Assembly (NCBI RefSeq): GCF_003334355.1
Contig: NZ_QOWP01000068.1
Direction: 5' to 3' (one strand)
Length of the DNA stretch: 5,921 nucleotides
From: Escherichia coli
GTDB taxonomy: Bacteria > Pseudomonadota > Gammaproteobacteria > Enterobacterales > Enterobacteriaceae
Shown here one piece after another: positions 316 to 4,555 of the stretch. Both the position numbers and the translations under genes were made by a program. The notes beneath the pieces are model-generated. The model ran no database searches, was not told where the DNA came from, and was given only the letters and a program-made list of their open reading frames with translations. The stretch's first letter is position 1; each line of letters opens with the position of its first letter.

Positions 316-1368
316 TCATATTCTCGCCAAAACACTTTTTAATGCCTTTGCGAATTCATCCAGACTTATATTGTCAATTTTTTGCCCAACGACGACTGAC
401 TCCGAAACATCGGCCATTGCGGGCCATCGCGTTTTGTAATCAGCATAAATTGCAACAACGGGAGTATTATAGGCACTTGCCATATGTAATATTGAGGTGT
501 CAGGAGTTATTGCGATATAAGCATCTTTTATGATTGCTGCTGAACGTTTAATCGAGGGTGATAAGGATAAACGGTAGACATTATTATAACAATCCACTAA
601 TACCCTGGCTTTATCTTCCCCTTTTGGTCCATGAACGATCACTATTGGTATATCTGTTTCACTTTGAATTTTTGCTATTAGATTTTCTGCAATCGATAAT
701 GAAAATGTACGTTCCTGCGAGCTACCTTCTAAATTAAGCGCAATGTAAGATCCTAACGATCGCATTTCCTCGCGCACCTCATCGAGTACATCCTCACTTA
801 GTGGCAATTCATATATTGGCCTGACTGCTGGAAAACCCGCCTCACGCATCATAAATGCCCATGTCATGGGTACAGGAGCCCGGAGATTCTGATCCATCCG
901 GGACGCGTTCTTGCACAAAGGGGAGTAGCACTTCATGGTTAAACCAACAACCTGAAAATTCGTTTTTGCTTTTAACTGACTGATAAATATCATCGTTTTC
1001 AGGTTCTTTTTACGCATCGCCTCTATACAAAGATCCGGCGTACCGTATTGCTGTGTTATGTTCTTTGCTAAATCTTTTATTTCTTTTAATGTTGCGTGAT
1101 CCTGCATAGTCATTGTGACTAATGTTAATTTAGTCTTTTCAAGTTTAAGTGCATTAAACACTTCTAAATTAATTGTCGACGTAACAATTAAAAGATGCTT
1201 AATTTTATGCAATTCAAGCGCCCGAATAACAGGAAAGATGGCCATAGCATCGCCAATCTGGTCGGGAATATGGATAACAACAAACTCTGTTTTTTCAATA
1301 TTAAAATTATAAGCTTTATAATCGTAGTAACTAAATGCAATACGTCTCAACAATGATGCTAAAAACAT
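316..1368 (-). CDS. yeeL: Glycosyltransferase family 9 (ADP-heptose:LPS heptosyltransferase-like) protein; YeeL-like
   Basis: Single uninterrupted minus-strand frame ending in TGA at 318-316. The N-terminal region (VVIHIPDQIGDAMAIFPVIRAL) resembles the GT9 'GD' motif region, and the C-terminal region (ITPDTSILHMASAYNTPVVAIYADYKTRWP) resembles the conserved GT9 DSGpmHlAaA...P-x-valfG block. Start is uncertain: the ORF track opens at a TTG (1431); the first in-frame ATG is at 1368-1366, preceded by GGGAGG/GAGG, which gives 350 aa. Position next to shiA matches the yeeL locus. Confidence 0.75.
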   Translation of the reverse strand: MFLASLLRRIAFSYYDYKAYNFNIEKTEFVVIHIPDQIGDAMAIFPVIRALELHKIKHLLIVTSTINLEVFNALKLEKTKLTLVTMTMQDHATLKEIKDLAKNITQQYGTPDLCIEAMRKKNLKTMIFISQLKAKTNFQVVGLTMKCYSPLCKNASRMDQNLRAPVPMTWAFMMREAGFPAVRPIYELPLSEDVLDEVREEMRSLGSYIALNLEGSSQERTFSLSIAENLIAKIQSETDIPIVIVHGPKGEDKARVLVDCYNNVYRLSLSPSIKRSAAIIKDAYIAITPDTSILHMASAYNTPVVAIYADYKTRWPAMADVSESVVVGQKIDNISLDEFAKALKSVLARI

Positions 1369-1682
1369 ACCTAACCTCGCCTCCCTACTGGTTATAATGC
1401 ATTGCAGTCTATCAGACTCATCATGGCGCAATTTTGTGCATATGCGGACTTTTATGTTTCATATCTCGAACCTGTGGGTCCTCTGCTTAATCCTTAAACA
1501 ACACCAGCAACTCCTGCGCTTTCATCTTCCAGCGAATTTTTCATGTTGCCGTTAATCGGCCATAAAATCATTTGCAGATGCGCTCTGTCGAGGTAGTCTC
1601 ATAAGGTTCGTTTATAGATCGACGGCAATGTGAGTTACCTTTTCCATACTAATTATAAAAAGACAGTACAAACAGGATCATT

Positions 1683-2999
1683 ATGGACTCCACGCTCATC
1701 TCCACTCGTCCCGATGAAGGGACGCTTTCGTTAAGTCGCGCCCGACGAGCTGCGTTAGGCAGTTTCGCTGGTGCCGTCGTCGACTGGTATGATTTTTTAC
1801 TCTATGGCATTACCGCCGCACTGGTGTTTAATCGCGAGTTTTTCCCGCAAGTAAGCCCGGCGATGGGAACGCTCGCCGCATTTGCCACCTTTGGCGTCGG
1901 ATTCCTTTTCCGTCCGCTCGGCGGTGTCATTTTCGGTCACTTTGGCGACCGACTGGGACGTAAGCGCATGTTAATGCTGACCGTCTGGATGATGGGCATC
2001 GCGACAGCCTTGATTGGTATTCTTCCTTCCTTCTCGACCAGTGGGTGGTGGGCACCTATTTTACTGGTGACGCTGCGTGCCATTCAGGGATTTGCCGTCG
2101 GCGGCGAATGGGGAGGCGCGGCGTTGCTTTCCGTTGAAAGTGCACCGAAAAATAAAAAAGCCTTTTACAGTAGCGGTGTACAAGTTGGCTACGGTGTAGG
2201 TTTACTGCTTTCAACCGGACTGGTTTCATTGATCAGTATGATGACGACTGACGAACAGTTTTTAAGCTGGGGCTGGCGCATTCCTTTCCTGTTTAGCATC
2301 GTACTGGTACTGGGAGCATTGTGGGTGCGCAATGGCATGGAGGAGTCCGCGGAATTTGAACAACAGCAACATTATCAAGCTGCCGCGAAAAAACGCATCC
2401 CGGTTATCGAAGCGCTGTTACGACATCCCGGTGCTTTCCTGAAGATTATTGCGCTACGACTGTGCGAATTGCTGACGATGTACATCGTTACTGCCTTCGC
2501 ACTTAATTATTCAACCCAGAATATGGGGTTACCGCGCGAACTTTTCCTCAATATTGGTTTGCTGGTAGGTGGATTAAGCTGCCTGACAATTCCCTGTTTT
2601 GCCTGGCTTGCCGATCGTTTTGGTCGCCGCAGGGTTTATATCACAGGCGCGTTAATCGGAACGTTGAGCGCATTTCCTTTCTTTATGGCGCTTGAAGCAC
2701 AATCTATTTTCTGGATAGTTTTCTTCTCCATAATGCTGGCAAACATTGCGCATGACATGGTGGTGTGTGTGCAACAACCGATGTTTACCGAAATGTTTGG
2801 TGCCAGTTATCGCTATAGTGGCGCTGGAGTCGGTTATCAGGTTGCCAGTGTGGTTGGCGGTGGATTTACACCTTTTATTGCCGCTGCACTCATCACTTAC
2901 TTTGCCGGGAACTGGCATAGCGTCGCCATTTATTTGCTGGCTGGATGCCTGATTTCCGCAATGACCGCTTTGTTGATGAAAGACAGTCAACGCGCTTGA
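1683..2999 (+). CDS. shiA: Shikimate/dehydroshikimate transporter ShiA (major facilitator superfamily)
   Basis: 438-aa ORF with ATG at 1683 preceded by AGGA. MFS motif-A-like sequences GHFGDRLGRKRM and LADRFGRRRV are present, and the protein is hydrophobic throughout. The sequence is recognised as E. coli ShiA from memory. Confidence 0.93.
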   Translation: MDSTLISTRPDEGTLSLSRARRAALGSFAGAVVDWYDFLLYGITAALVFNREFFPQVSPAMGTLAAFATFGVGFLFRPLGGVIFGHFGDRLGRKRMLMLTVWMMGIATALIGILPSFSTSGWWAPILLVTLRAIQGFAVGGEWGGAALLSVESAPKNKKAFYSSGVQVGYGVGLLLSTGLVSLISMMTTDEQFLSWGWRIPFLFSIVLVLGALWVRNGMEESAEFEQQQHYQAAAKKRIPVIEALLRHPGAFLKIIALRLCELLTMYIVTAFALNYSTQNMGLPRELFLNIGLLVGGLSCLTIPCFAWLADRFGRRRVYITGALIGTLSAFPFFMALEAQSIFWIVFFSIMLANIAHDMVVCVQQPMFTEMFGASYRYSGAGVGYQVASVVGGGFTPFIAAALITYFAGNWHSVAIYLLAGCLISAMTALLMKDSQRA

Positions 3000-3005
3000 T
3001 AGCCT

Positions 3006-3045
3006 GGCGAAGATCATCCGATCTTCGCCTTACACTTTTGTTTCA
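3006..3045 (+). terminator. Candidate intrinsic terminator downstream of shiA
   Basis: Perfect 9-bp stem GGCGAAGAT (3006-3014) / ATCTTCGCC (3021-3029) with 6-nt loop CATCCG, followed by the T-rich tract TTACACTTTTGTTT. Begins 7 nt after the shiA stop. Confidence 0.45.
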
Positions 3046-3100
3046 CATTTCTGTGACATACTATCGGATGTGCGGTAATTGTATGGAACAGGAGACACAC

Positions 3101-4555
3101 ATGAATAATAAGGGCTCCGGTCTGACCCCAGCTCAGGCACTGGATAAACTCGACGCGCTGTATGAGCAATCTGTAGTCGCATTACGCAACGCCATTGGCA
3201 ACTATATTACAAGTGGCGAATTACCTGATGAAAACGCCCGCAAACAAGGTCTTTTTGTCTATCCATCACTGACCGTAACCTGGGACGGTAGCACAACCAA
3301 TCCCCCCAAAACGCGCGCATTTGGTCGCTTTACCCACGCAGGCAGCTACACCACCACGATTACTCGCCCTACTCTCTTTCGTTCGTATCTTAATGAACAA
3401 CTTACGTTGCTGTATCAGGATTATGGTGCGCATATCTCTGTGCAACCCTCGCAGCATGAAATCCCCTATCCTTATGTCATCGATGGCTCTGAATTGACAC
3501 TTGATCGCTCAATGAGCGCTGGGTTAACTCGCTACTTCCCGACAACAGAACTGGCGCAAATTGGCGATGAAACTGCAGACGGCATTTATCATCCAACTGA
3601 ATTCTCCCCGCTATCGCATTTTGATGCGCGCCGCGTCGATTTTTCCCTCGCACGGTTGCGCCATTATACCGGTACGCCAGTTGAACATTTTCAGCCGTTC
3701 GTCTTGTTTACCAACTACACACGTTATGTGGATGAATTCGTTCGTTGGGGATGCAGCCAGATCCTCGATCCTGATAGTCCCTACATTGCCCTTTCTTGTG
3801 CTGGCGGGAACTGGATCACCGCCGAAACCGAAGCGCCAGAAGAAGCCATTTCCGACCTTGCATGGAAAAAACACCAGATGCCAGCATGGCATTTAATTAC
3901 CGCCGATGGTCAGGGTATTACTCTGGTGAATATTGGCGTGGGACCGTCCAATGCTAAAACCATCTGCGATCATCTGGCAGTGCTACGCCCGGATGTCTGG
4001 TTGATGATTGGTCACTGTGGCGGATTACGTGAAAGTCAGGCCATTGGCGATTATGTACTTGCACACGCTTATTTACGCGATGACCACGTTCTTGATGCGG
4101 TTCTGCCGCCCGATATTCCTATTCCGAGCATTGCTGAAGTGCAACGTGCGCTTTATGACGCCACCAAGCTGGTGAGTGGCAGGCCCGGTGAGGAAGTCAA
4201 ACAGCGGCTACGTACAGGTACTGTGGTAACCACAGATGACAGGAACTGGGAATTACGTTACTCAGCTTCTGCACTTCGTTTTAACTTAAGCCGGGCCGTA
4301 GCAATTGATATGGAAAGTGCAACCATTGCCGCGCAAGGATATCGTTTCCGCGTGCCATACGGGACACTACTGTGTGTTTCAGATAAACCGTTGCATGGCG
4401 AGATTAAACTTCCCGGCCAGGCTAACCGTTTTTATGAAGGCGCTATTTCCGAACATCTGCAAATTGGCATTCGGGCGATCGATTTGCTGCGCGCAGAAGG
4501 CGACCGACTGCATTCGCGTAAATTACGAACCTTTAATGAGCCGCCGTTCCGATAA
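3101..4555 (+). CDS. amn: AMP nucleosidase (EC 3.2.2.4)
   Basis: 484-aa frame from ATG 3101 (MNNKGSGLTPAQALDKLDALYEQ...), preceded by GGAGA at 3091-3095. The C-terminal half shows nucleoside phosphorylase/hydrolase-fold features (VNIGVGPSNA, AIDMESATIAAQG). The 536-aa ORF in the track starts inside the shiA 3' end and is not accepted. Confidence 0.95.
   Translation: MNNKGSGLTPAQALDKLDALYEQSVVALRNAIGNYITSGELPDENARKQGLFVYPSLTVTWDGSTTNPPKTRAFGRFTHAGSYTTTITRPTLFRSYLNEQLTLLYQDYGAHISVQPSQHEIPYPYVIDGSELTLDRSMSAGLTRYFPTTELAQIGDETADGIYHPTEFSPLSHFDARRVDFSLARLRHYTGTPVEHFQPFVLFTNYTRYVDEFVRWGCSQILDPDSPYIALSCAGGNWITAETEAPEEAISDLAWKKHQMPAWHLITADGQGITLVNIGVGPSNAKTICDHLAVLRPDVWLMIGHCGGLRESQAIGDYVLAHAYLRDDHVLDAVLPPDIPIPSIAEVQRALYDATKLVSGRPGEEVKQRLRTGTVVTTDDRNWELRYSASALRFNLSRAVAIDMESATIAAQGYRFRVPYGTLLCVSDKPLHGEIKLPGQANRFYEGAISEHLQIGIRAIDLLRAEGDRLHSRKLRTFNEPPFR

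Follow-up and report, generated by a model that had tools for sequence, protein, structure and literature searches.

We analysed a stretch of 5,921 bp of Escherichia coli DNA (hereafter the window), which corresponds to the shiA-amn region. Both genes passed their NCBIfam equivalog cut-offs; a yeeL-like open reading frame lies upstream of shiA, and yeeN lies downstream of amn. The 101-nt spacer between shiA and amn is base-for-base identical to that of K-12 MG1655, and window coordinates convert to NC_000913.3 by addition of 2051960. Among 5426 complete E. coli genomes, the stretch 2900-3250 was found in 5410, where it is annotated as shiA/amn, and the spacer was present at 95% identity or more in 5397. 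The features discussed below are as follows.

1683-2999, plus strand: shiA (shikimate:H+ symporter) coding sequence, from the open reading frame list and the RefSeq annotation; NCBIfam NF007414, 904 bits against a cut-off of 538.
3006-3029, plus strand: stem-loop at the shiA 3' end, with a perfect 10-bp stem and the loop ATCC; likely an intrinsic terminator with a weak U-tract.
3030-3035, plus strand: TTACAC, a weak candidate third Pho half-site in 11-bp register, E. coli-specific and not conserved.
3034, plus strand: mapped shiA RNA 3' end, 5 nt past the stem (Term-seq, M63 glucose, OD 0.4).
3035-3046, plus strand: conserved block 1, CTTTTGTTTCAC, which holds the distal half-site TTTCAC (3041-3046) and, in Escherichia, doubles as the T-rich tail of the hairpin.
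3041-3058, plus strand: TTTCAC-ATTTC-TGTGAC-A, Pho box (PhoB binding site), assigned from identity with a ChIP-seq site, the top matrix match and conservation.
3054-3064, plus strand: amn -10 region, with TG (3054-3055) and the overlapping hexamers CATACT (3057-3062) and TACTAT (3059-3064), placed from conservation and the transcription start.
3072, plus strand: amn transcription start (G), giving a 29-nt 5' untranslated region (Kim et al. 2012).
3090-3094, plus strand: amn Shine-Dalgarno sequence AGGAG, 6 nt before the ATG; the alignment keeps AGGAG or GGAG.
3101-4555, plus strand: amn (AMP nucleosidase) coding sequence, from the open reading frame list and the RefSeq annotation; NCBIfam TIGR01717, 836.8 bits against a cut-off of 364.7.

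Several observations concern the surroundings of the spacer. The yeeL-like open reading frame (316-1431, minus strand) is intact and encodes 371 residues with weak heptosyltransferase similarity; yeeL of K-12 is annotated as a pseudogene, and bases 1-180 of the window did not align with K-12. A Term-seq 'orphan' 3' end at 2056608, which is window position ~4648 on the plus strand and 93 nt past the amn stop, is probably the end of the amn transcript; beyond it the 340-nt amn-yeeN spacer is very A/T-rich. Directly before the amn ATG lies an ACACACA run (3095-3101). A published MazF study includes amn in its list of mRNAs cleaved at an ACA that lies 2 nt before the start codon, and such a cut would yield a near-leaderless amn mRNA. 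No Rfam family was detected at gathering thresholds in either the spacer or the whole window.

The shiA end of the spacer is occupied by the stem-loop, which begins 7 nt past the shiA TGA and had been picked out in a first-pass annotation made from the letters of the window. Its arms, GGCGAAGATC (3006-3015) and GATCTTCGCC (3020-3029), are 10 nt each, 100% complementary and separated by a 4-nt loop. The predicted RNA fold of -17.5 kcal/mol compares with a shuffle mean of -6.7 ± 2.3 (z = -4.76), and none of 200 shuffles was as stable; the stem-loop itself is of the stable, GC-rich kind found in intrinsic terminators. The further suggestion that this hairpin marks the end of shiA agrees with Term-seq data (Adams et al. 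bioRxiv 10.1101/2020.07.18.207399, supplementary file 1, sheet M63 0.4), in which position 2054994 on the plus strand, equivalent to 3034, is classed as the 'primary' shiA 3' end. We verified the convention of that file (50 nt upstream and 10 nt downstream of each end) on its thrL entry. The end was recorded in one of the three growth conditions, M63 only, with a modest count of 758 reads.

The tail that follows the stem, TTACACTTTTGTTT, has four T in its first eight bases and was not called as a terminator by a simple scan with a threshold of five. The U-tract is weak (UUACACUU) and is interrupted by ACAC (UUACACUUUUGUUU). Simple scans of 2700-3400 called neither a terminator nor a canonical sigma-70 promoter, which is consistent with a weak U-tract and with a promoter that has no -35 element. 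No change was seen in the stem across E. coli and E. albertii, whereas its loop occurs as ATCC, AACC or GTCA. In Enterobacter and Lelliottia, shiA and amn are adjacent and there is no comparable hairpin. The hairpin is likely a weak, Escherichia-specific intrinsic terminator whose T-rich tail is borrowed from the conserved block of the amn promoter.

Alternatively, the hairpin could be a stem that protects the 3' end: shiA transcription would end further downstream, either at a Rho-dependent site or by running into amn, and exonucleases would then trim the RNA back. The interrupted U-tract with its four T in eight bases would suit such a stem, and the mapped end, 5 nt past the stem, is nearer to it than the usual 7-9 nt; so too would the restriction of this end to M63 with its 758 reads, and the neighbouring shiA and amn of Enterobacter and Lelliottia, where the shiA stop lies ~8 nt from the promoter block and the hairpin is missing. 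However, the stem is strong and has a GC-rich base, a T-rich stretch does come after it, the Term-seq authors class the end at 3034 as primary for shiA, and within Escherichia an invariant stem is combined with a variable loop. We consider trimming a doubtful explanation, although one to be taken seriously, and continue to treat the hairpin as a likely terminator.

In the five Enterobacter/Lelliottia loci the shiA-amn spacers measure 76-88 nt and the shiA stop comes to within ~8 nt of the CTTTTGTTTCAC block; shiA transcription may read into the amn promoter there. We also noted a perfect 8-nt inverted repeat between 3015-3022 (CATCCGAT; hairpin loop and 3' arm) and 3063-3070 (ATCGGATG; bases 5' of the amn start). 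An alternative pairing between the two was rejected: an 8-nt repeat arises in ~8% of shuffles, neither E. albertii nor the E. coli loop variant displays covariation, and 3063-3070 lies upstream of the amn transcription start.

Immediately beyond the hairpin the spacer carries the amn promoter. The first-pass annotation had placed it under the inverted motif described below, with CATACT and TACTAT as candidate -10 hexamers, and the published start agrees with that placement: G3072 falls just past both hexamers (PMC3415461). In the source (Kim et al. 2012, PMC3415461, supplementary file 2) this start is entered as NC_000913.2 2053056 on the plus strand with 71 reads and an upstream sequence ending in ACTATCGGATGTG; the cells were not phosphate-starved. 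A simple scan of 2700-3400 found no -35 match at this promoter. The element TG(3054-3055)-A-CATACT is near-invariant across species, and the start lies 10 nt past CATACT, where 7-8 nt would be usual. Conservation therefore favours CATACT with its TG, and the distance to the start favours TACTAT. A canonically spaced downstream promoter using ATGTGC (3068-3073) as its -10 element is unlikely, as the hexamer is poor, the stretch is not conserved and the start is at 3072.

One natural variant parts the -10 region from what precedes it. In E. coli 20AR0354 (NZ_CM132272.1) the end of an IS1 element abuts TACTATCGG at the equivalent of ~3059 in the window, and IS1 replaces everything upstream of that point, including the Pho box, the hairpin and the end of shiA.

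The sequence overlying the amn promoter had been read as an inverted motif, TCACA-N4-TGTGA. The motif is real, and its precise position is 3043-3056: TCACA at 3043-3047, TTTC at 3048-3051 and TGTGA at 3052-3056, with arms that cannot be extended. At least one inverted repeat with 5-nt arms and a 4-nt gap occurred in 8.6% of the sequences obtained by shuffling the 101-nt spacer. The bare repeat is thus unremarkable, and any significance comes only from its match to the PhoB matrix and from its conservation.

To score PhoB sites we built a log-odds matrix from the 58 other ChIP-seq sites of Fitzgerald et al. 2023, with the amn site excluded, and ran it over both strands. Of all positions in the 5,921 bp, 3041-3058 on the plus strand gave the best match. 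Its score of 13.0 bits exceeds those of 14 of the 58 training sites and corresponds to a frequency of ~2.9e-5 per position, or 0.005 matches expected in the spacer. On the minus strand the same 18-mer scored nearly as high (11.3 bits), and the plus-strand orientation of the PhoB site is therefore tentative. Read on the plus strand, the 18-mer is a degenerate direct repeat with an 11-bp period, (G)TTTCAC-ATTT-(C)TGTGAC, which contains TCACA-N4-TGTGA and each half of which is one step from (C)TGTCAC.

The first-pass annotation had seen no convincing Pho box in the spacer. This view does not stand, since the motif itself is the Pho box. PhoB ChIP-seq in phosphate-limited MG1655 (Fitzgerald et al. 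2023, PMC10294691, Table 1) places an amn peak centre at 2055017, equivalent to 3057, and the site listed there, TTTCACATTTCTGTGACA, is identical to 3041-3058. The listed site was assigned by MEME within the ChIP peak rather than by footprinting, and its ChIP score of 1 is the lowest class (PMC10294691). Taken together, the TCACA-N4-TGTGA motif is very probably the published PhoB site on the amn promoter, and as such already known. The symmetry of TCACA and TGTGA is incidental and does not argue for a symmetric operator: it arises because TTTCAC and TGTGAC deviate from TGTCAC at complementary positions.

Two weaker PhoB-like sequences were noted. Upstream of the box, the 18-mer 3030-3047 (TTACAC-TTTTG-TTTCAC) reached 6.4 bits (6.2 when rescored), against 6.9 bits for the weakest ChIP-validated site. 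Inside amn, a Pho-box-like 18-mer at 3194-3211 on the minus strand (TGTAATATAGTTGCCAAT) scored 10.9 bits, the third-best matrix match in the window. The ChIP-seq table gives it no peak of its own (PMC10294691); it lies 137 bp from the centre of the promoter peak and might be hidden within that peak.

For a comparison across species, amn loci of 80 species were gathered; the alignment covers 136 nt flanking the amn start codon in 25 Enterobacteriaceae. Two blocks stood out, and the sequence between and around them was variable. In block 1, T3041 never varies, and conservation reaches 90% or more at C3035, T3036, T3037, G3040 and T3042-C3044. Block 2 (TGACATACTATC, 3054-3065) shows no variation at T3054, G3055, C3057, A3058, T3059 and A3060, and at least 90% conservation at T3062. 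Both blocks persist in genera that have no shiA upstream of amn, and they therefore belong to amn.

The aligned 18-mer reached at least 10 bits in 16 of the 25 species, with linkers that drift (ATTTC, ATTCC, AATCC, AAAGC, ATTGC, AATTC). Half-sites and -10 block are kept in Escherichia, Citrobacter, Enterobacter, Phytobacter, Pluralibacter, Trabulsiella, Siccibacter, Kosakonia and Superficieibacter. In Enterobacter/Lelliottia the 18-mer scored only 3.9-5.6 bits and the linker is GC-rich (AGGCG). The box is lost (4.3 bits or less) in Salmonella diarizonae, Citrobacter R56, Pseudocitrobacter, Kluyvera, Klebsiella oxytoca, and three taxa of Cedecea and Shimwellia, and species without the box still keep TGnCATAC. 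In Salmonella and Citrobacter R56 the bases at 3052-3053 are GC instead of TG, a change that spares the extended -10 element. Among the sampled E. coli variants the half-sites and the -10 element were invariant, with polymorphisms confined to the linker (T3050C), the hairpin loop and the vicinity of the transcription start. T3050C, which changes the linker from ATTTC to ATTCC, is the commoner allele among these variants and the Citrobacter state; it lowers the score from 13.0 to 11.3 bits. The matrix match and this phylogenetic footprint were established here by computation.

Regulation of amn by phosphate, which the first-pass annotation had mentioned with reference to older literature, was borne out by K-12, EDL933 and avian pathogenic E. 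coli (APEC) data, and amn is PhoB- or phosphate-dependent in all three published transcriptomes. In K-12 at low phosphate, amn RNA stood at 42,299 in the wild type and 12,429 in delta-phoB, a 3.4-fold difference (log2 1.8, q = 6.7e-18), and RNA polymerase occupancy within amn dropped in delta-phoB (Fitzgerald et al. 2023, PMC10294691). In a microarray study of O157:H7 EDL933, amn was 14.5-fold up at low relative to high phosphate and 5.2-fold higher in the wild type than in delta-phoB. A Pho-constitutive pst mutant of APEC showed a 6.1-fold increase in amn. The RegulonDB list of PhoB targets includes amn, and the amn promoter has served as a part that responds to phosphate but leaks noticeably at the basal level. 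Published experiments thus document PhoB occupancy, PhoB- and phosphate-dependent levels of amn mRNA and RNA polymerase occupancy, the transcription start and the shiA 3' end. In K-12 the induction of amn is modest and its basal expression high.

AMP nucleosidase is inhibited by phosphate. Low phosphate would consequently raise both the activity of the enzyme and, through amn, its synthesis, which makes the regulation physiologically sensible. The 1989 amn paper of Leung and colleagues in Biochemistry is said to have described a phosphate box and phosphate regulation of amn, and reportedly also an effect of cAMP.

In the explanation that we favour, the shiA transcript would end at the stable stem-loop 3006-3029, giving the RNA 3' end at 3034, and the amn promoter immediately downstream, which has no -35 element and TG-n-CATACT/TACTAT as its -10 region (3054-3064), would initiate at G3072. 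Upon phosphate limitation, phosphorylated PhoB would bind 3041-3058 as a head-to-tail dimer, with TTTCAC and TGTGAC as direct-repeat half-sites 11 bp apart, and the bound PhoB would raise amn transcription several-fold over a substantial basal level. Which bases PhoB contacts, and how it would help RNA polymerase from 3041-3058, is inferred.

The arrangement of the site is unusual. Relative to G3072 the amn 18-mer occupies -31 to -14. At the phoB promoter, in the same start-site dataset (PMC3415461), the 18-mer occupies -39 to -22 and CATAAT -12 to -7. The amn box is therefore 8 bp nearer the start than the phoB box and ~8-11 bp nearer the -10 element, depending on the hexamer chosen. It overlaps the invariant TG (3054-3055) and CA (3057-3058) of its own -10 region, whereas a canonical box (about -39 to -22) ends ~9-10 bp upstream of the -10 element. 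The canonical model has the box lying across the -35 region, in contact with the C-terminal domain of sigma. Because the amn box overlaps its own -10 region, it fits this model poorly.

A conserved, non-canonical mode of activation could be envisaged. PhoB would sit one helical turn nearer the start, over the spacer and extended -10 element of a promoter that works without PhoB, and would activate by a contact other than that between the upstream protomer and region 4 of sigma-70; or PhoB would switch transcription between the two overlapping -10 hexamers. We put this forward tentatively and regard it as rather unlikely. Activation by PhoB from a box lying over the -10 element is a modest mechanistic point, for specialists in the geometry of response regulators and RNA polymerase.

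The geometry would become ordinary if PhoB used only TTTCAC and the DNA upstream of it (3030-3047, the canonical -39 to -22 relative to CATACT), TGTGAC being kept mainly because TG (3054-3055) and AC belong to the extended -10 element, and the published 18-mer being partly a coincidence. In this register 9 nt separate the box from CATACT, precisely the canonical distance and the one seen at the phoB promoter. T3054, G3055, A3058 and T3062 are invariant or nearly so in the 25 species even where T3052 and G3053 are lost, and conservation is higher in the TTTT just 5' of TTTCAC than in the linker that the published register implies. The E. coli score of 6.4 bits also falls just under that of the weakest ChIP-validated site. 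However, TTACAC is not conserved: outside E. coli, 14 of 24 species give this register a negative score, and none gives it more than 4.9 bits. Moreover, T3052 and G3053 are kept in 17 of the 25 species (G3053 in 18) while the five adjacent linker positions drift, which suggests selection on the whole of TGTGAC, and the start at 3072 fits TACTAT better than CATACT. We judge the upstream register improbable and retain 3041-3058 as the PhoB site.

The inverted motif had also been described as CRP-like, with the wrong orientation and spacing for a canonical CRP site. That caution was justified. A pattern search for TGTGA-N6-TCACA with up to three mismatches gave no match overlapping 3030-3070, and across the window 15 such matches were observed against 22.8 expected; a CRP site at the motif was rejected on this basis. 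A PhoB-independent operator for a symmetric dimeric regulator of amn, CRP-like or other, is highly improbable, for although the arms are perfect reverse complements, both conserved in many genera, and cAMP reportedly affects amn, CRP-type matches are absent over the motif and fewer than chance in the window, the pentamers are everted and spaced by 4 nt rather than 6, T3041-T3043 and C3057-A3060 outside the symmetric arms are more conserved than T3052/G3053 inside them, and PhoB accounts for both occupancy and regulation.

The first-pass annotation was accordingly right about the terminator and about where the promoter lies, in dismissing CRP and in pointing to phosphate, and missed the PhoB assignment, which had already been published. 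Both units of the spacer, the shiA 3' end and the amn promoter with its Pho box, have been described before: amn has long counted as a member of the Pho regulon, and a published ChIP-seq table contains precisely the 18-mer 3041-3058. The outcome is a correction of annotation, in which what looked like a CRP-type inverted repeat turns out to be a Pho box once it is read as a direct repeat.

Comparison with known systems places each element. Like intrinsic terminators, the shiA hairpin combines a stable GC-rich stem-loop after the stop codon with a T-rich stretch and an RNA 3' end just past the stem; unlike them, its U-tract is interrupted by ACAC and it escapes a simple scan. With extended -10 sigma-70 promoters (TGnTATAAT) the amn promoter, if CATACT is taken as its hexamer, shares a TG at -15/-14, an A at -11, a T at -7, the lack of a -35 element and basal, activator-independent activity. 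It differs in that the start lies 10 nt past CATACT and that the better-fitting TACTAT has no TG. CRP sites (TGTGA-N6-TCACA) share both pentamers with the amn motif, in which, by contrast, their order is everted and they stand 4 nt apart rather than 6.

With the Pho boxes at PhoB-activated E. coli promoters (pstS, phoA, phoB, ugpB, phoE, phnC) the amn box shares TGTCA(C/T)-like direct repeats, an 11-bp period and an A/T-rich linker. As at other Pho regulon promoters, the box is bound by PhoB in vivo, the gene is induced by phosphate limitation in a phoB-dependent manner, and there is no -35 hexamer; lists of the regulon already include amn. In contrast to those promoters, the amn box lies at -31 to -14 (phoB, -39 to -22) and abuts or overlaps the -10 element, and induction in K-12 is ~3.4-fold over a high basal level, with a ChIP signal in the lowest class. 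The amn half-sites also carry one mismatch each (TTTCAC, TGTGAC), which generates the incidental inverted symmetry; the case illustrates that two imperfect direct-repeat half-sites can mimic an inverted repeat.
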